The notes below the pieces were generated by a model. The model saw only the letters and a program-made list of their open reading frames with translations, ran no database searches and was not told the DNA's origin. From the IMG/VR virus record IMGVR_UViG_2684622619_000016: 6,749 nt of DNA; one strand, written 5' to 3'. The stretch comes from a virus. Lineage: Duplodnaviria > Heunggongvirae > Uroviricota > Caudoviricetes. Positions within the stretch are counted from its first letter, which is position 1. Every line of letters begins with the position of its first letter. Positions 1 through 6,749 of the stretch are shown piece after piece. Position numbers and translations under genes: made by a program.

Positions 1-62
1 TTAGTCATCCTGTTTACCTCTTTCTCAGGGAGTTTAGTCTCCAGGATTCCCGGGGCGGTTCA
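1..62 (-). mobile_element. Terminal 62 bp of an IS3-family insertion sequence (IS629/IS1203-like left end): terminal inverted repeat, RBS and first codons of an outward-reading transposase orfA; the IS body lies left of the window
   Basis: Seen: 1..62 is the reverse complement of 6690..6749 with one mismatch (position 49 vs 6703). On the minus strand it reads TGAACCGCCCCGGG...GAGAAAGAGG(8 nt)ATGACTAA, i.e. a terminus starting with TG, an AAGAGG Shine-Dalgarno (17..22) and ATG at 8..6 reading out of the window. Recalled, not searched: this matches the IS629-type left end and an OrfA beginning MTK. Confidence 0.75.
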
Positions 63-684
63 ATCTGCTGGCCGGAACTAATGAATTTATTGGTGAAGGT
101 GACGCATACATTCCGCCTCATACAGGTCTGCCAGCAAACAGTACCGATATTGCACCGCCAGATATTCCGGCTGGCTTCGTGGCTGTTTTCAACAGTAATG
201 AGGCATCGTGGCATCTCGTTGAAGATCATCGGGGTAAAACGGTTTATGACGTGGCTTCCGGCGACNNNNNNNNNNNNNNNNNNNNNNNNNNNNNNNNNNN
301 NNNNNNNNNNNNNNNCATCGGGGTAAAACGGTTTATGACGTGGCTTCCGGCGACGCGTTATTTATTTCTGAACTCGGTCCGTTACCGGAAAATGTTACCT
401 GGTTGTCGCCGGATGGAGAGTGTCAGAAGTGGAACGGCACATCCTGGGCGAAAGATGCAGAAGCAGAAAAACTGTTTCGGGTACGGGAGGCAGAAGAAAC
501 AAAAAACAGCCTGATGCAGGTAGCCAGTGAGCATATTGCGCCACTTCAGGATGCCGTAGATTTGGATATTGCGACGGAGGAAGAGGCATCGTTACTGGCT
601 GCATGGAAGACATATCGGGTATTGTTGAATCGTGTTGATACAACAGTAGCAGCGGATGTTGAGTGGCCAGTCGCCCCACAATAA
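63..684 (+). CDS. tfa: Tail fiber assembly protein (Tfa/gpG-like), 5'-truncated at the IS junction and interrupted by a scaffold gap; possibly a pseudogene
   Basis: Frame 2 translation 38..265 ([76 protein letters not shown]) continues after the gap in frame 1 (316..684: ...[48 protein letters not shown]...[16 protein letters not shown], stop TAA 682..684). This is the characteristic phage Tfa sequence. There is an in-frame TAG at 35..37 inside the IS and no ATG between 38 and 178; the first start-like codon is GTG at 179. Confidence 0.85.
227..354. repeat. Identical 39-bp direct duplicate (227..265 and 316..354) flanking a run of 50 N (266..315): scaffold gap with unmerged overlapping contig ends
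   Basis: Seen: CATCGGGGTAAAACGGTTTATGACGTGGCTTCCGGCGAC occurs on both sides of the N run. Removing 266..354 (89 nt) restores one continuous Tfa reading frame. Confidence 0.9.
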
Positions 685-690
685 AAAGAA

Positions 691-720
691 AAAGCCATCG
701 ACAGAAATATCGATGGCTTT
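691..720. terminator. Candidate bidirectional rho-independent terminator between the convergent tfa and acetyltransferase genes
   Basis: Seen: perfect 11-bp stem AAAGCCATCGA (691..701) / TCGATGGCTTT (710..720) with an 8-nt loop. An A-run lies at 683..692, which is a T-run on the minus strand, and TTT follows on the plus strand. It sits 6 nt past the acetyltransferase stop and 7 nt past the tfa stop. Confidence 0.5.
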
Positions 721-727
721 ATGTACT

Positions 728-1204
728 CTATTTATACAATACAACACCACTCTTTTTAGTTATATATGTGCAGTTTGATGGTATATCTTTATTTATAAAA
801 GACATTGCACCTATTTTTACATTATCCCCAATTTTACGTGATAATCCAATGATGCAACAATTAGCTCCGATATCAACGTTACTACCAATTTTTACTCTTG
901 AACTAGGCATATCACCATCTATCTGTCCAATGGTAGTATTCTGTCGTAATACCAGATTTTCACCCGCATCAACAGCAAAATGAACAACAATTCCAGCATG
1001 ATGGGGAATTGTCAACCCTTTTCCAATATTTGCGCCCAATCCTATTTCACAACCAAACTTGTTAATTATTTTACTGTTTAACTTTTTGGCTGCTTTCTTA
1101 TGTAATTTATTACCATTAATATACATTTCGTTAGCCAACCGCCACCAGAAAAGGAAATTCCGGTTACGCTGCTTTTTCTCTCTTAAAAGCCTCCAGATAT
1201 CCAT
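728..1204 (-). CDS. Hexapeptide-repeat acetyltransferase (left-handed beta-helix, serine acetyltransferase CysE/WcaB-like), cargo gene in an AT-rich island
   Basis: The translation contains tandem [LIV]-G-x4 hexapeptide repeats and a CysE/WcaB-like core (GCEIGLGANIGKGLTIPHHAGIVVHFAVDAGENLVLRQNTTIG...VKIGSNVDIGANCCIIGLSRKIGDNVKIGAMSFINKDIPSNCTYI). I chose the ATG at 1204 (MDIWRLL..., about 158 aa, the size of WcaB-like enzymes). The six-frame ORF extends to a GTG at 1333 (201 aa), but that N-terminal extension is low-complexity, AT-rich translation with no Shine-Dalgarno; the start is uncertain. Confidence 0.7.
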   Translation of the reverse strand: MDIWRLLREKKQRNRNFLFWWRLANEMYINGNKLHKKAAKKLNSKIINKFGCEIGLGANIGKGLTIPHHAGIVVHFAVDAGENLVLRQNTTIGQIDGDMPSSRVKIGSNVDIGANCCIIGLSRKIGDNVKIGAMSFINKDIPSNCTYITKKSGVVLYK

Positions 1205-1351
1205 ACGTTTCCGCCGAATTACTTCATGTTTCCAGAAGTTTTTTAAATTAGTAGAGTTTCCAAATAAAACAAAGTGAATTGCCATTAAGTAAGATAGCAC
1301 GATAATCTCCTTAATTATTATTTCAGACCACACATGTTATAAGGTTAAGAG

Positions 1352-1380
1352 ATTATAAAATCCTGTTATTTGTTATTCAA
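1352..1380 (-). promoter_or_regulatory. Candidate sigma70 promoter for the acetyltransferase cargo gene
   Basis: Seen on the minus strand: -35 TTGAAT (1380..1375), 17-nt spacer, perfect -10 TATAAT (1357..1352), in the AT-rich spacer between the gpU stop and the cargo gene. Confidence 0.4.
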
Positions 1381-1456
1381 AAACAATTTTCTGAGAAGGA
1401 CATACAACAGCAAGTCGCCAGTCACCTTCATCAGGAAATTGGCGACATACGTTAAA

Positions 1457-1951
1457 TCAGAGCAGCCCCTTAACTGAGCTGGCCGCGCTATTAAGGGATG
1501 ATGTCACCTTATCTTTGAAGCCGGACAGCATATCGCTGAACGATGAGGATTGCAGGCGCTCCCGCAAATCCTCATCACAGCGTTCAAGAGTCAGTGAAAA
1601 TTCTATCTTTTTCGCCTTACCGTAGCGATCAAACTCGGAGCGGGTCGTATTCGTTCCGGTCAGGACATACATGCCGTAAATCTGCCCGACGCCATCAATC
1701 AAAGGCCAAGGACGTCCTGTATATGCCTGCGTGGTCAACAACGACAGCGACACTTCGCCACCAGTAATCTCAGGATAAAGAACACCAGAAAGAACGATGC
1801 GATCATCACCTGCACCGATATACTGCCAGCTTGCTGAACGGTTAACGCGTTCATTTTTCACATGTCGCCAGCTTTTGTTTTGCTGTAACTGCTGATGCGG
1901 CAACGTGCGCAGCTCAAAAACAAACATGCCGTAGATCATCATCATGGCCAT
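1457..1951 (-). CDS. Phage tail protein gpU-like (P2 family)
   Basis: 164-aa ORF beginning MAMMMIYGMFVFELRTLPHQQLQ..., matching the P2 gpU family as I recall it. ATG at 1951 with a GGAG Shine-Dalgarno 4 nt upstream, 6 nt after the tape measure stop. Confidence 0.9.
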   Translation of the reverse strand: MAMMMIYGMFVFELRTLPHQQLQQNKSWRHVKNERVNRSASWQYIGAGDDRIVLSGVLYPEITGGEVSLSLLTTQAYTGRPWPLIDGVGQIYGMYVLTGTNTTRSEFDRYGKAKKIEFSLTLERCDEDLRERLQSSSFSDMLSGFKDKVTSSLNSAASSVKGLL

Positions 1952-1957
1952 GACTCC

Positions 1958-4797
1958 TCAATCTTTATCGTAAAAACTGCCACGCCTGGCACGGGCGCGC
2001 CGTTCCATTTCTGCCCTGACCATTTCGCCGACCAGTTTCGCCAGTTCGCGGGGATTCTGCGTAACAACGTTATGCAGATGAACATGAATTTCACCGCCAA
2101 ATCCGGAGGCAACAGGCTCCCGGTTACGGGAAGTTGCAGGAACTGATGCCACTGGCGATCGTATGGCCTCCACCACCGGGCGGGAGCTGGCCGCAACAAC
2201 AGGGACCAGCGCCGGAGGCAGCGGAGCCGGGACCACGGGTGTGATATTAATTGCGGGGGCAGGCTTACTGACCTGCGCAATCTTCCGCTCCTGCCACTCC
2301 CCACGAACAGCAAGTGCGCGGGGCAGGTTCTTAAAGACAATATCGCCGGGGCCAATGCGTTTTTTTGTCTCATCAACCAGCTTACCTGTGTTATCAGCAA
2401 TTTTGCTGAGTCTGCGTAGCGTGCCGGTATTGCTGTCTGTGAGAGGTTTGTTGTCTTTGGGTTTATCATCTCCGGTGCCATTGCTATTTCCCGCAGACTT
2501 CGGCGGATTGATTTTCGCAATGTCTCCCTGAAACAGAGCAACCTTGTCCTGAAGAATGGCCGCACGTTGTGCGTCTTCGATTTTCTTGCGCGCCCTTTCC
2601 GCTTCATCCGGAAGCACACCGAGTTTTTCAAGTATCCACGCCAGCGTATCCAGCAACATTTTTGCAGGCGTCAGAACAAGCTGTAACGCACCACCAAGAA
2701 CGTTACCGAATACCTCGCCAGCACTGGTACATTTATCCAGCGTTTCCTTGCTGGACTCCATCGGTGACAGCAGCGATTTAAACCAGTTAAACACCTGGCT
2801 GAACCGCTTCCGATTACGTCAAAAACAGGGCCAAACCGTTCAAAGGTGTCGCGCAACGGGGTCAGCCTTTCCATAATCCCGCTGAACACCCCGGCAAAGA
2901 AAGCCCTGATAGGATCCCAGTATTTCCAGATAAGAACGGCAGCTCCGGCAAGCGCAGCCACGATAAGACCAACCGGACTGAACAACGCCCCGATAACGCC
3001 TCCCAGTAAAGAAACGGAACCCGTCACCATTCCCCATAGCGCAGGTAACACCCTGACGACATTCATTGACCGGGTAAGAATGTCAAAACCAAGACGCAGG
3101 GTGGCCAGCTTCCCGTAAAGCACCCCAATAACCAGCGACAACGAGCCAATCGTTGCAGTCATTGCCAGCAACGCACCGCCTGCTATCAGTAGCTGGCGCG
3201 TCAGTACCGGATGGGCCTGCGCCAGCGAGGTGATTTTTTCAAGCACCCGCGTGAGCCACTGCGTGACAGAACGCAGCGGACCGTCAACCAGATCACTGAT
3301 GCGAATACGAAGACCTTCCCATGCGCTGTCGAGATTTTTCAGGTCCCCATCAAGATTATCAGCCATTACTTTTGCGACGCGATCGGCCTCTCCCCTTGCC
3401 CCCTGCAATTCTCTGGTCAGTTTTTGCAGCTCTCCTGAACCAGCCGCCGCAACAAGCGTCTGCAAACCAACGAACGCCTCTTCTCCGGCGATGTCCTTGA
3501 AGAAGGAGACCTGGTCCACCTGTCCGTATTTTTGTGTCGCCTTATAGAGATCAAGCAGCACATCCTCCATCGGGCGCATTTTGCCTCTGGCGTCAGCAAC
3601 TGACACCCCCAGCTCTTTCAGTGCATCAGCCGCAGCTTTTGGCGGTGATGCAAGGCGGGACAGACTTGCGCGCATGGCCGTGCCAGCATCGCTTCCGCGA
3701 AGACCATTATTGGCAAGCATCCCGGCCATGGCCGCCGCTTCTTCAAGACTGATACCAAGTTTTGCGGCAACCGGACCGGTATACTTCATGGTTTCGCCCA
3801 GCGCGCGTAAATCAGTATTGGTCCGGGTAAATGCTGCTGTCAGCGTATCGCCCACCCGGTCCATTTGATCGGCTGTCAGGTTGAACTGTGTGAGGATATT
3901 GGAGCCTATATCAGCCGTCTCGCCGAGTTCGACGCCACCTGCCAGCGCCATATTAAGAACACCGGGCAATGCGGCCTGAATGGCCTGCGGAGTAAAACCA
4001 GCCATTGCCAGAAAGCTCTGCCCACTGGCGGCATCACTCGCAGTAAACTGTGTTTCAGCAAGTTTTAACGCCTGCTCACGCAGCGCCTTAAACTGCGGGC
4101 TGTTTTTGTCGATTCGCGTCAGTGCCTGAACGCGGGACATCTCTTTGCCGAACCCGATCGCAGGCTGCAAAAAACGCCCGGCAGCATAGCCGCCCGCCGC
4201 TGCCGCACCAATTGCCAGCGCACCACCTGTTTTCAGTTTTCCCGCGGTTTCCTGCGCGTGCGAATACCGCTCACGCGCCTGCGTTACACGCGCAAGCGCC
4301 TGCCGTTCGCGTTCAAGCTGGTTGTTGTATTGTTCGGTGCGTCTGATGGCCTGCTGAATGGTGTTATCGCTGCCTGTCAGGGAAATGCCGTGGCGTTTCA
4401 GCTCTCCGCCAAGTTCCCTCATTTTCTGAATTTCCCGTGTGCGCGATTCATTCAGGCGTTCAAGCCGGGTGCTTAACTGCTGCATCAGCTTTTGTTGTTT
4501 TTCGCTGAGCACTGTACCCGTGCGTTGTAACTGATTAAGGGCGTTAAGCTGGCGTCGTGCTTTCACGATGCCAGCATCCGCTTTACTGACAGCGTCGCGG
4601 GCGCGCTCAAATGATCGCGCCTGACGCTCGAGATTTTTGATCGCCCCCTGCGTTCGCTGGATGGAGTCACCAAACTGCCCCATCAGGCGGCGTGCGTTTT
4701 CGGCAGGTCGGGTCAGCCTGTCAACGGCGCTGAAAGCGACCCGGATATCAAGAGTCTTCATTGTCTGCATTCCCGCTGCGAAGTGCCGCCCGCTCAC
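1958..4797 (-). CDS. Tail tape measure protein (gpT-like) with an apparent frameshift near 2795..2815 that splits it into 708-aa and 278-aa ORFs
   Basis: The large ORF 2671..4797 is Ala/Leu/Gln/Arg-rich with predicted coiled-coil character and a glycine-rich hydrophobic segment, typical of tape measure proteins. ORF 1958..2794 continues in another frame (...FNWFKSLLSPMESSKETLDK...RRGSFYDKD) and ends 6 nt before gpU. The last ~40 codons of the 708-aa frame look like out-of-frame read-through. Start is ambiguous: GTG 4797, ATG 4770 or ATG 4761, all overlapping the E' end. Confidence 0.85.
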
Positions 4798-5277
4798 GCC
4801 AGCTAACCACTTCGCCGGGCGTCATCATGAAGATTTCGGCGGGCGACCAGTTAAAAATAACGGCAATATCTGCCACAAAGTCTTCTATGTGCTCAAAGCA
4901 CACAACCGTGATCAGGCTTCCGTCGCCTGTTCGTTCTTCCCGCCAGAGTCCGCACCGCTCAAAAAATTTACGGCAACCACACATAACTGAATAAAGTCAC
5001 GGGATGCCATTTTTTTGATCGTCACTTCATCCAGTCGCGGTGATGTCACGCGTGACAGCAGCGTAAACATGGATTCCGCTTTCAGATTCAGCACATCAGA
5101 CAGCGACAAATCTCGCAGAGATCCAGCCTGCTCAATAGCCCCGGTGATCTCCACATACGTGATTTTTTCGCCGCCTCGCTCAATTGGTTGGGTAAGTTTT
5201 ACACCACGCTCACTGGTTTCTTTCACAGTGTCAGTAACTACCGTGTTTTCGGTATCGATGTTTTTCGTCTCTTTCAT
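4748..5277 (-). CDS. Tail assembly chaperone gpE-like (4912..5277) and its -1 frameshift extension product E+E' (to the stop at 4748..4750)
   Basis: gpE ORF has ATG at 5277 with an AAGGAG Shine-Dalgarno 8 nt upstream and stop TGA at 4912..4914. The overlapping -1 frame ORF 4748..4984 (…FFERCGLWREERTGDGS…) is entered at the TTTTTTG heptamer. Its end overlaps the tape measure start, as in the P2 FI-FII-E-T-U-D operon. Confidence 0.75.
4960..4966 (-). other. Programmed -1 ribosomal frameshift slippery heptamer T TTT TTG (E to E+E')
   Basis: Seen: minus-strand ...GCC GTA AAT TTT TTG AGC... in the gpE frame. A -1 shift reads TTT TTT GAG CGG..., which is exactly the 4748..4984 ORF. Recalled: the P2 E/E' frameshift uses this heptamer. 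Confidence 0.7.
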
Positions 5278-5331
5278 CAGGAAACTCCTTTCAGTCAGAG
5301 GCGACGCACTGCGCCGCCTGCATATTACTTA

Positions 5332-5844
5332 TCAGCCAAGCCCAAGCGCGGAACGGATGCGATCGGGCACAATGTCCTTGCCGTCCTTCCGGTAAATGAA
5401 GTTCAGCAGGTCAATCTCCCACAACGGGCGATCGTTAACACTCAGCTTGTAGTAGGTGTTTTTAATGGCGTAAGTGTGTGATGTGGCTTCGCCCTGTTTG
5501 GCTTCCCCCATATCAATTTCCGTCACACGTCCGCGCATTTCGACTTCATACAGGTCGCTTTCATCATCGGTGTAGTATTCCCCCGCAAAACGCAGTAGCG
5601 TGCCGTCAATCGTGCCGCCATACTTCAGGAACAGCTCACGAACTGCGCCCCCCATGACAAAGCTCGCATCAAGCGCGGAGTCGTCCAGGCCGAGGTCAAT
5701 ACTTACCGCACCCATCATGCCACCACCCCGGTAGCTGTCGGTTTTGCGCGTCAGTTTAGGCAGGGTGACGGACGTCACCTTACCCACTTCGTTTTCACCA
5801 TCCACAAACAGCGTAAAAAAGCGAAGATGTTTTGGTACAGCCAT
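5332..5844 (-). CDS. Major tail tube protein (FII-like, P2 family)
   Basis: 170-aa ORF (MAVPKHLRFFTLFVDGENEVGKVTSVTLPKLTRKTDSYRGGGMMGAV...) with the P2 FII architecture. ATG at 5844 with a GGGAGG Shine-Dalgarno; the start overlaps the sheath stop as TGATG. Confidence 0.9.
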   Translation of the reverse strand: MAVPKHLRFFTLFVDGENEVGKVTSVTLPKLTRKTDSYRGGGMMGAVSIDLGLDDSALDASFVMGGAVRELFLKYGGTIDGTLLRFAGEYYTDDESDLYEVEMRGRVTEIDMGEAKQGEATSHTYAIKNTYYKLSVNDRPLWEIDLLNFIYRKDGKDIVPDRIRSALGLG

Positions 5845-6689
5845 CAGGCACCTCCCAGCACCGCAAATGCGGGACCAAAGAATTCATCAGTAAACGACTG
5901 GTAAAGCTCCATGTCTTCCAGCGGAGGAACGGGCGTATATTTGTAGCGAATACGCACACGCCCCTGACGTAAATTCGTGGTGCTGTTATCCTCGATGTCA
6001 TACCAGCACTCCGCGCCAATCAGTTTCCCGGCAGTAACCAGTGAATCCAGTTTTGCCCTGATGGCACTGATAACATCCTTCACGTTCGCAGGTGTCAGTG
6101 GACTGTCGATGGTTTCAAACTGCGCTTCCGCAATTGAATCAGCCAGCACCTGTGCGGTTCGGGTATACACCTCAAAGATGTAGGCGTTCGTTTCCGGTGT
6201 GCGGTTGCCCCAGAAGCGGAACCCGTTGCGACGAATAATGGTCGTGATTTCTTTGTTGTTGAGGCTGTTGGCATCACTGTCTTCGGCCTGCAACGACCAG
6301 AACACATGCCTCGACATCCCAAGCACATTTTTAACCGGAACGTTGGACAGCGATTTGTGCCAGCCCTGCTCATGGTCAATGTACGCACGAAGGCCGCACG
6401 CATAAGCAGGCGCGGGGAACGTTTCGTTTTTGCCACTTTTCAGGTTGTAGGCGATGAAGTCAGGCCATAAGAGCATCACCTCACGTTCGTTGAATTTCTG
6501 GCGGTAGGTAATCGCCTCAGCCATCGTGTTACAACCATGTGGCATACACAAACGCGCGCAGTTTACCCGCAATCACGCACAGGGATTTTGTTACCGCCTC
6601 CGTGTCCAGCTCCGGCGCGGCCAGAATACGCGGACGGTATCCGATGCTTTCATCCTGCTCTGCAACAAGCAGCGCATACATCCCCGTAT
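5844..6689 (-). pseudogene. Tail sheath protein (FI-like), 5'-truncated by the IS at 6689/6690 and carrying an apparent frameshift at about 6535..6540
   Basis: The C-terminal part (to the stop at 5844..5846) reads ...AITYRQKFNEREVMLLWPDFIAY...HEQGWHKSLSNV...IIRRNGFRFWGNRT...YKYTPVPPLED, which is sheath-like. The part upstream of the shift is in another frame (6689..6532: NTGMYALLVAEQDESIGYRPRILAAPELDTEAVTKSLCVIAGKLRAFVYATW). Together they correspond to roughly residue 115 onward of a ~390-aa sheath. There is no start codon; the frame runs into the IS end. Confidence 0.85.
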
Positions 6690-6749
6690 TGAACCGCCCC
6701 GGAAATCCTGGAGACTAAACTCCCTGAGAAAGAGGTAAACAGGATGACT
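6690..6749 (+). mobile_element. Terminal 60 bp of a second IS3-family (IS629/IS1203-like) copy, left end, with transposase orfA starting at ATG 6744 and reading out of the window
   Basis: Seen: TGAACCGCCCCGGAAATCCTGGAGACTAAACTCCCTGAGAAAGAGGTAAACAGGATGACT. It is inverted relative to 1..62 and differs at one base (6703), so these are two distinct copies rather than an assembly duplication. Confidence 0.75.

Follow-up and report, generated by a model that had tools for sequence, protein, structure and literature searches.

The acetyltransferase island

The virus record IMGVR_UViG_2684622619_000016 (IMG/VR; Caudoviricetes) comprises 6,749 nucleotides, the whole of which was analysed and is referred to here as the window. 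It covers part of the tail region of a P88-type, P2-like prophage and, between the tail-fibre assembly gene tfa and the tail gene gpU, it holds an island (positions 685-1456) filled by a single minus-strand open reading frame (ORF; longest form 728-1333). The product of this gene is probably an active O-acetyltransferase, and we find that the gene travels together with tfa and the tip of the tail fibre between P2-like and P1-like phages. The features of the island and its two borders are as follows.

62-684, plus strand: tfa, a tail-fibre assembly gene of the P2 gpG type (Pfam Caudo_TAP, 5e-38, and alignment to the O157 tfa), convergent with the acetyltransferase gene
691-720, minus strand: intrinsic terminator just past the acetyltransferase stop, a 13-bp stem followed by TTCTTTTTAT (T-run)
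728-1300, minus strand: acetyltransferase gene (ORF), 190 residues, predicted left-handed β-helix (hexapeptide) protein, RefSeq name 'serine O-acetyltransferase'
1307-1312, minus strand: Shine-Dalgarno sequence AAGGAG, 6 nt upstream of the GTG, read from the sequence
1352-1380, minus strand: candidate sigma-70 promoter, TTGAAT-17 nt-TATAAT, with 10 of 12 matches to the consensus
1414-1446, minus strand: stable hairpin GTCGCCA...TGGCGAC without a T-run, read from the sequence, just past the gpU stop
1457-1951, minus strand: gpU tail gene (Pfam Phage_P2_GpU, 1.5e-38), 93.6% identical to P88

The GC content of 685-1456 is 0.338 (0.340 for the gene, and 0.288 at its third codon positions), compared with 0.501 in the left, tfa flank and 0.541 in the tail block at 1457-6687. 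Since no 772-nt segment within 1457-6687 falls below 0.500 (standard deviation 0.019), the island lies more than 10 standard deviations under the rest. Computation therefore agrees with the first-pass annotation, made from the letters of the window, in which an AT-rich island of ~0.77 kb had been placed directly downstream of gpU. The two genes are on the same strand, gpU being the upstream one and the final gene of an inverted FI-FII-E-T-U block. The terminator and plausible promoter that the annotation had assigned to the island are also found, as a hairpin with a T-run at 720-691 and as TTGAAT-17-TATAAT at 1380-1352, the promoter as a candidate only.

The GTG at 1300 is the likely start of the gene, as AAGGAG precedes it, the PGAP start is the same and the N-termini of homologues agree. 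Terminator-like sites number two, against 0.6 expected from a comparison with shuffled sequences, and the hairpin at 691-720, lying between the convergent tfa and acetyltransferase genes, is probably bidirectional. On the upstream side the RNA fold of 1301-1460 has z = -3.0, and the hairpin at 1414-1446 marks the border between conserved P88-type DNA and the island. A search of Rfam gave no RNA family in the island. Its sole match, IS009 (RF02111; 449-647, plus strand, 191 bits, full length), is wholly within the tfa coding region, and this 'RNA family' appears to have been built on conserved tfa sequence.

Position of the island in P88-type prophages

The acetyltransferase gene had initially been thought to lie where gpD should be, and this has to be corrected. 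The prophages of O104:H4 C227-11 and of an echidna isolate, which are intact, free of insertion sequences (IS) and integrated at another site than the O157 copy, have a common layout. The genes V, W, J, I, H and G run towards the island; the acetyltransferase gene, U, T, E, FII and FI follow on the opposite strand; and beyond FI come D, pointing away from it, a variable gene and ogr. Phage P88 is arranged in the same manner, with H and G, a variable locus, the oppositely directed U, T, E, FII and FI, and then D. Because the intact relatives and P88 share this layout, the FI-U block is natively inverted in the genus Xuanwuvirus and, the inversion being a genus trait, gpD has not been replaced. 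Loss or replacement of gpD was rejected, since in the intact relatives a full-length D ORF with an ATG and ribosome-binding site lies 158 nt from FI, whereas the island is on the tail-fibre/tfa side. P88-type gpD is divergent from FI over this ~158-nt spacer and therefore stands apart from the other genes of the P2 F operon. The region lies at 18331-19597 in the O104:H4 copy (L005) and at 14582-15840 in P88 (L171), and PGAP annotates in it only a shortened D of 266 residues and a spurious antisense pseudogene.

Two other origins for the orientation of the block were considered. The inverted IS1203 ends of the window, together with the IS1203 truncation of T in O157, suggested an IS-mediated inversion that placed gpU beside the island; this was rejected, as IS-free prophages elsewhere and P88 have the same orientation. 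A programmed inversion of FI-U was rejected as well, the flanking repeats being only chance-level matches of 15-27 nt and 70-93% identity. An alignment of the P_F promoter between P2 and the inverted lineage was uninformative, the sequences being too diverged.

P88 (Xuanwuvirus, Peduoviridae) is 93.6% identical to the window over 1451-6689, with the same inverted FI-U block and divergent D, and the homology begins at 1451, 6 nt past the gpU stop. It differs between G and U, where P88 holds tfa', a fibre' segment and a DNA invertase, and no acetyltransferase. The island is thus in the variable tail-fibre locus, the counterpart of the Z/fun hotspot of P2. The location in a P2-family hotspot, as originally proposed, is upheld by the collinearity of P88 on both sides of a different content, and by P2-like phages of canonical gene order (L147, L149, L151 and L025), in which homologues of 49-67% identity occupy the G-FI interval on the opposite strand, precisely the place of fun(Z) in P2. 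The description of the island as a horizontally acquired single-gene moron also stands, given its GC content of 0.34 against 0.50-0.54, its own signals and its variable presence among collinear phages.

The closest positional parallel is fun(Z) of P2, in the 'TO'/Z-fun hotspot between the tail-fibre assembly gene G and the sheath gene FI, annotated as a lysogenic-conversion gene that blocks T5. It occupies the same slot in the same orientation, directly downstream of and convergent with G, and it too is a single non-essential gene of atypical composition. There is no sequence relationship between the two, and the far neighbour is gpU here and FI in P2, the F block being inverted here.

A trace of the history of the locus is seen in the O104 copy (L005), where 10047-10438, just past the constant part of the fibre, is 88% identical to 8266-7875 of P88 (L171), part of the alternative fibre segment, in reverse. 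This match suggests that the acetyltransferase locus descends from an invertible fibre segment in a fixed state, without the invertase.

The acetyltransferase and its distance from CysE

Both sequence and predicted structure agree with the initial description of the protein as a CysE/WcaB-like hexapeptide acetyltransferase. Its sequence matches are of CysE/WcaB/EpsC type. The Pfam Hexapep profile is matched with an E-value of 2.7e-5 (24.1 bits, slightly below the gathering score of 27), and most homologues have a precomputed match to PF00132. Among 33 sequence matches in the PDB the CysE enzymes are on top. An AlphaFold2 model made from 32 homologues (pLDDT 83) starts with five N-terminal helices and continues as the left-handed β-helix, the short strands of which begin at residue 84, and all of the top 50 Foldseek matches to this model in the PDB are CysE (probability 1.00, query-normalised TM-score 0.5-0.71). 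Inspection of the catalytic residues, by alignment to the CysE motifs VDI and DHATG, places E85 at CysE Asp143 and H100 at CysE His158; the former is E or D across the whole family and the latter nearly invariant. Conservation extends to members of only ~40% identity, which still share invariant catalytic and β-helix residues. These features indicate that the protein is probably an active O-acetyltransferase. It is a member of the phrog_2154 family ('unknown function'), whose profile it matches with an E-value of 2.9e-87 (291.9 bits, residues 13-190 against positions 3-181 of 185), and this family is related to CysE, WcaB and EpsC.

If the name serine (O-)acetyltransferase used in RefSeq and in phage records were taken at face value, the gene would be an auxiliary metabolic gene that raises the supply of O-acetylserine and cysteine in the lysogen or during phage growth. 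The likeness to CysE, in the helical N-domain and left-handed β-helix, the acid/His pair and the nearest solved structures, is in keeping with the name. The protein nevertheless lacks several parts of CysE. It is ~80 residues shorter (190 compared with ~273) and has no Pfam match to SATase_N (PF06426), and the GDRHP loop of CysE, in which Arg192 and His193 bind the serine carboxylate, is aligned to a stretch, 'SSRV', that varies across the family. Binding of CysK requires the Ile-terminated C-terminal tail of CysE, whereas the C-terminus here (...VLYK) is variable among homologues and is not such a tail. The scores are also far under the cutoffs, with 62.3 bits against 210.65 for TIGR01172 (cysE) and 36.4 against 397 for PRK11132. 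We conclude from these sequence comparisons that this is no serine acetyltransferase of the CysE kind; the database name is almost certainly wrong, and a role in cysteine supply very unlikely.

All of the other NCBIfam matches are below their cutoffs too. The best is to EpsC (NF041874; 76 bits, cutoff 150), and the WcaB models TIGR04016 and PRK10191 give 54-55 bits against 194.65 and 196. WcaB, of colanic acid synthesis, and EpsC are polysaccharide-cluster enzymes of a similar short size class, and the match to them spans the β-helix and the preceding helices. They differ in the low score (54-76 bits against cutoffs of 150-196) and in setting, the gene here being in a prophage tail region outside any polysaccharide gene cluster. 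Enzymes of the WcaB/EpsC type are cytoplasmic and act while the glycan is being assembled.

NeuO of prophage CUS-3 is a hexapeptide O-acetyltransferase of the K1 capsule and affects phage sensitivity (PMC13001214). The analogy with NeuO made in the first-pass annotation holds for function and goes no further. Both are prophage-borne hexapeptide O-acetyltransferases, the target of NeuO being an established surface glycan, but NeuO is of another hexapeptide subfamily (the NeuD/NeuO-type model TIGR03570 gives 30.6 against a cutoff of 160.8) and belongs to another prophage type and locus. The heptanucleotide repeats of phase variation are also missing, no tandem or heptanucleotide repeats being found in 600-1560.

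The Z/fun and tail-gene locus is a known accessory and defence hotspot of P2-like phages (PMC9122126, PMC13586616), and many unannotated hotspot genes of P4 satellites protected against phage when tested (PMC13586616). Homologues of the acetyltransferase are found beside an Abi-family gene, in the integrase-side hotspot, and beside HicAB in Citrobacter phage phiNP. These surroundings would suit an enzyme that acts inside the cell, either against phage or by acetylating a small molecule, nucleotide, protein or xenobiotic, and not on an envelope glycan. No family in the 5,027 models of PADLOC-DB v2 was matched even at E <= 1, which leaves room for an undescribed system. The families closest to the protein are O-acetyltransferases of sugars or amino acids, the gene is single and small with no sensor or effector partner, and its co-transfer with the fibre tip and tfa, described below, would be left unexplained. 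We know of no defence system that is based on a left-handed β-helix acetyltransferase, and we regard an intracellular target as unlikely.

Linkage to the tail-fibre tip and tfa

The O104 P2-like prophage and the P1-like phage vB_EcoM-Ro157c2YLVW have in common a segment of 1,798 bp with 95.9% identity. It takes in the final ~610 nt of the fibre gene, then tfa and the complete acetyltransferase gene, and stops at the start codon of the latter. The fibre tip, tfa and the acetyltransferase gene therefore move horizontally as a cassette between P2-like and P1-like phages. In the P1-like phage-plasmids JL22 and vB_EcoM-Ro157c2YLVW the gene (named 'sacF' or serine acetyltransferase) is 91% identical and convergent with tfa. 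In the P1-like phage it lies where the alternative U'/Sv' fibre arm of P1 would be, of which only a truncated U' is left. The 'sat' gene of phiNP, 44% identical, is likewise convergent with tfa; in both cases the phage backbone is a different one.

The association extends to more distant homologues. Those of 35-67% identity adjoin tfa, mostly convergently, in several other phage backbones, for example in Hafnia phage yong2 and E. coli phage 613R2, where the two genes are convergent; the homologue of the Salmonella prophage remnant STM4195-4203 comes after the tail-fibre genes and reads in the same direction. For a wider count, 160 further loci and six fetched earlier were grouped into 73 clusters at 85% identity. 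A tfa/fibre-family gene is at most three genes away in 13 of the 73, a lower bound because the tfa profile used misses other tfa families. In 11 of these 13 the next gene downstream is tfa, convergent and 4-54 nt away; Gilliamella, Buttiauxella, Salmonella and Citrobacter phiNP are among them.

This tight and recurrent adjacency across backbones might mean that the enzyme serves the phage's own fibre, being expressed with the late tail genes and acetylating or maturing the fibre or Tfa, or altering the receptor late so that progeny do not become stuck on debris. In the P88-type layout the gene does point the same way as the late FI-U operon and comes after it, with only the hairpin lacking a T-run between them. 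In most contexts, however, it converges on tfa and is opposed in strand to all late genes, and is therefore not in a late operon, and it has a candidate sigma-70-like promoter of its own. Its atypical GC content and its patchy distribution among otherwise near-identical phages, P88 being without it, show that it is dispensable for virion assembly. A late function in the service of the fibre thus appears improbable.

A consistent chromosomal context for the distant homologues was looked for and rejected, the 114 nearest neighbours being heterogeneous; in a Pfam scan of these no family had more than three members. A minority of the non-phage homologues adjoin lipopolysaccharide (LPS) or glycan genes (Kdo/WaaP kinase, heptosyltransferase, HldE, EptB-like, NeuB/PseH/PseG-like and Ugd), which lends weak support to a glycan substrate.

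Distribution, selection and state of the prophage

The gene is present at >=95% identity in 510 of 5,426 complete E. coli genomes (~9%), and in 509 of the 510 its neighbours are tfa and gpU, the same as in the window. It has 100% DNA identity to O157:H7 genomes (PGAP annotation WP_000954203.1), and the same allele occurs across the O-serotypes O157, O104, O26, O111 and O45. Plasmid records make up 66 of the E. coli matches, and those listed measure ~98-99 kb, as P1-like phage-plasmids do. The homologues are mostly phage or islet genes and not housekeeping cysE. Values of dN/dS between alleles are 0.03-0.19, and the gene is under purifying selection.

The rest of the window was assigned through Pfam, the ORFs being tfa, the acetyltransferase gene, gpU, T, E/E', FII and the C-terminal two thirds of FI. 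Upstream of gpU on the minus strand are the following.

1958-4797, minus strand: T, the tape-measure gene
~4912-5277, minus strand: E/E'
5332-5844, minus strand: FII, the tube gene
5844 to ~6687, minus strand: FI, the sheath gene, C-terminal two thirds only

At both ends of the window, 1-62 and 6688-6749, the left end of IS1203/IS629 is found, in inverted copies with 98.4% identity to the element by which T is truncated in O157:H7. One truncates the 5' end of tfa, the break being 45 nt into the coding sequence, and the other takes away the first ~340 nt of FI. From 316 to 4267 the window is 99.95% identical to E. coli O157:H7 chromosomes. Within tfa a run of 50 N (266-315) breaks the gene between the copies of a perfect 39-bp direct duplication (227-265 and 316-354); the N-run and duplication at 227-354 are a scaffold-join artefact and have no biological meaning. 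T has a 1-nt deletion at ~2803-2807, in comparison with O157, O104 and P88, which splits it into ORFs 1958-2794 and 2671-4797, and FI has a 5-nt deletion at 6536 in comparison with O104 and P88. Either the prophage is decaying or these are errors in a draft assembly.

In such surroundings the gene could be a functionless remnant, hitch-hiking on a tail-fibre cassette that is often exchanged. The two IS ends and the frameshifts in T and FI, as signs of a decaying prophage, and the lack of a reported function (PMC9603915) would fit. The low dN/dS speaks against a remnant, and so does the preservation of the family to ~40% identity with its catalytic and β-helix residues. While T, FI and tfa are frameshifted or cut by IS, the acetyltransferase ORF is unbroken and has the same sequence as the O157 allele, as it does in hundreds of genomes, with its terminator and Shine-Dalgarno sequence preserved. 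We find it extremely unlikely that the gene is without function.

Several other accessory genes were seen in the related prophages. The slot between gpD and ogr holds a single gene, of DUF3800, DUF2971 or YecA-family type, in different copies (L005 19689-20858; L006 19733-20518; L001 26961-28100), and looks like a further moron or defence hotspot of the P88-type group. A macro-domain protein of 300 residues is encoded between the fibre gene and tfa in O157:H7 PV15-279 (L001 18596-19498) and is not in the O104 and echidna copies, and a DUF6645 protein of 626 residues is encoded among the lysis genes of the O104:H4 copy (L005 3922-5802) and is not in the O157 and echidna copies.

Discussion

Much of what surrounds this gene was already known, namely its annotation in RefSeq, the Z/fun hotspot and prophage glycan acetyltransferases as a kind. 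Papers on P1-like phage-plasmids (PMC9603915) and on phiNP (PMC6456863) list the acetyltransferase as cargo whose role is unknown, and Klebsiella prophage acetyltransferases alter surface glycans (PMC13123978). In the literature we found no experimental study of the gene; the papers on P2/P4 hotspots are silent on it, and no mention of an acetyltransferase was found in the literature on Sp13 or CP-933T. What is added here is the corrected placement in the P88-type tail-fibre locus, the evidence that the enzyme is not CysE, and the cassette of fibre tip, tfa and acetyltransferase across phage families.

We tentatively favour a reading, which we would place somewhat short of probable, in which the enzyme acetylates an envelope glycan of the lysogen, most likely the LPS core, and thereby brings about lysogenic conversion or superinfection exclusion. 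The gene would be expressed from the prophage, and its product would be a cytoplasmic, acetyl-CoA-dependent O-acetyltransferase of the left-handed β-helix class. A sugar of a conserved envelope glycan, with the LPS core as leading candidate, would be O-acetylated at the cytoplasmic face during assembly, and the altered surface would then reduce adsorption of phages that use it as receptor. Such a role would be akin to that of other prophage receptor-modifying genes, in the niche that is the fun(Z) slot of P2.

The receptor of phiNP is the GlcII of the LPS core (PMC6456863). We favour the LPS core because the same allele is found in many O-serotypes, which argues for a conserved target, and because the carrier phages are thought or shown to use it. 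The fibres of P1 and P2 bind the LPS core. The support for a receptor-modifying enzyme of lysogenic conversion is indirect and comes from the co-transfer with the fibre tip and tfa, the phiNP homologue and the homologues at LPS loci.

Several points weigh against glycan acetylation in the lysogen. To our knowledge, neither the O157 O-unit nor the R3 core has been reported to carry an O-acetyl group. The promoter is only a candidate, because such sites are no commoner (four) than in shuffles of the AT-rich region (4.1 expected), and in the inverted layout transcription of the late FI-U operon could run on into the gene, a point in favour of a late role and not a lysogenic one. As the end of a tail-fibre operon is a generic landing site for morons, adjacency to tfa could be due to the permissiveness of the site and not to function; in some P2-like phages the homologues are near the integrase end instead, away from the tail fibres. 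The neighbours of non-phage homologues are moreover heterogeneous, with 132 Pfam families among the 114, and those related to LPS are a small minority.

A more specific proposal is that fibre tip, tfa and acetyltransferase form a 'receptor-binding plus receptor-masking' cassette, the enzyme O-acetylating the very LPS-core epitope that the linked tip recognises. This we consider doubtful. Host-range specificity and a matching superinfection exclusion would travel together between P2-like, P1-like and other myovirus backbones, as a glycan-level analogue of the T5 pb5/Llp pairing, and a cassette that excludes its own kind would have a built-in selective advantage.

If no such modification takes place, the gene is one more uncharacterised moron. 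Its carriers include O157:H7, O104:H4, O26, O111 and O45 pathogens as well as P1-like phage-plasmids. Should the LPS core or some other conserved glycan of the envelope be modified by the enzyme, this would affect phage susceptibility, with relevance to the phage typing and therapy of Shiga toxin-producing E. coli, and the spread of tail-fibre cassettes; serology and innate immune recognition may possibly be affected as well.

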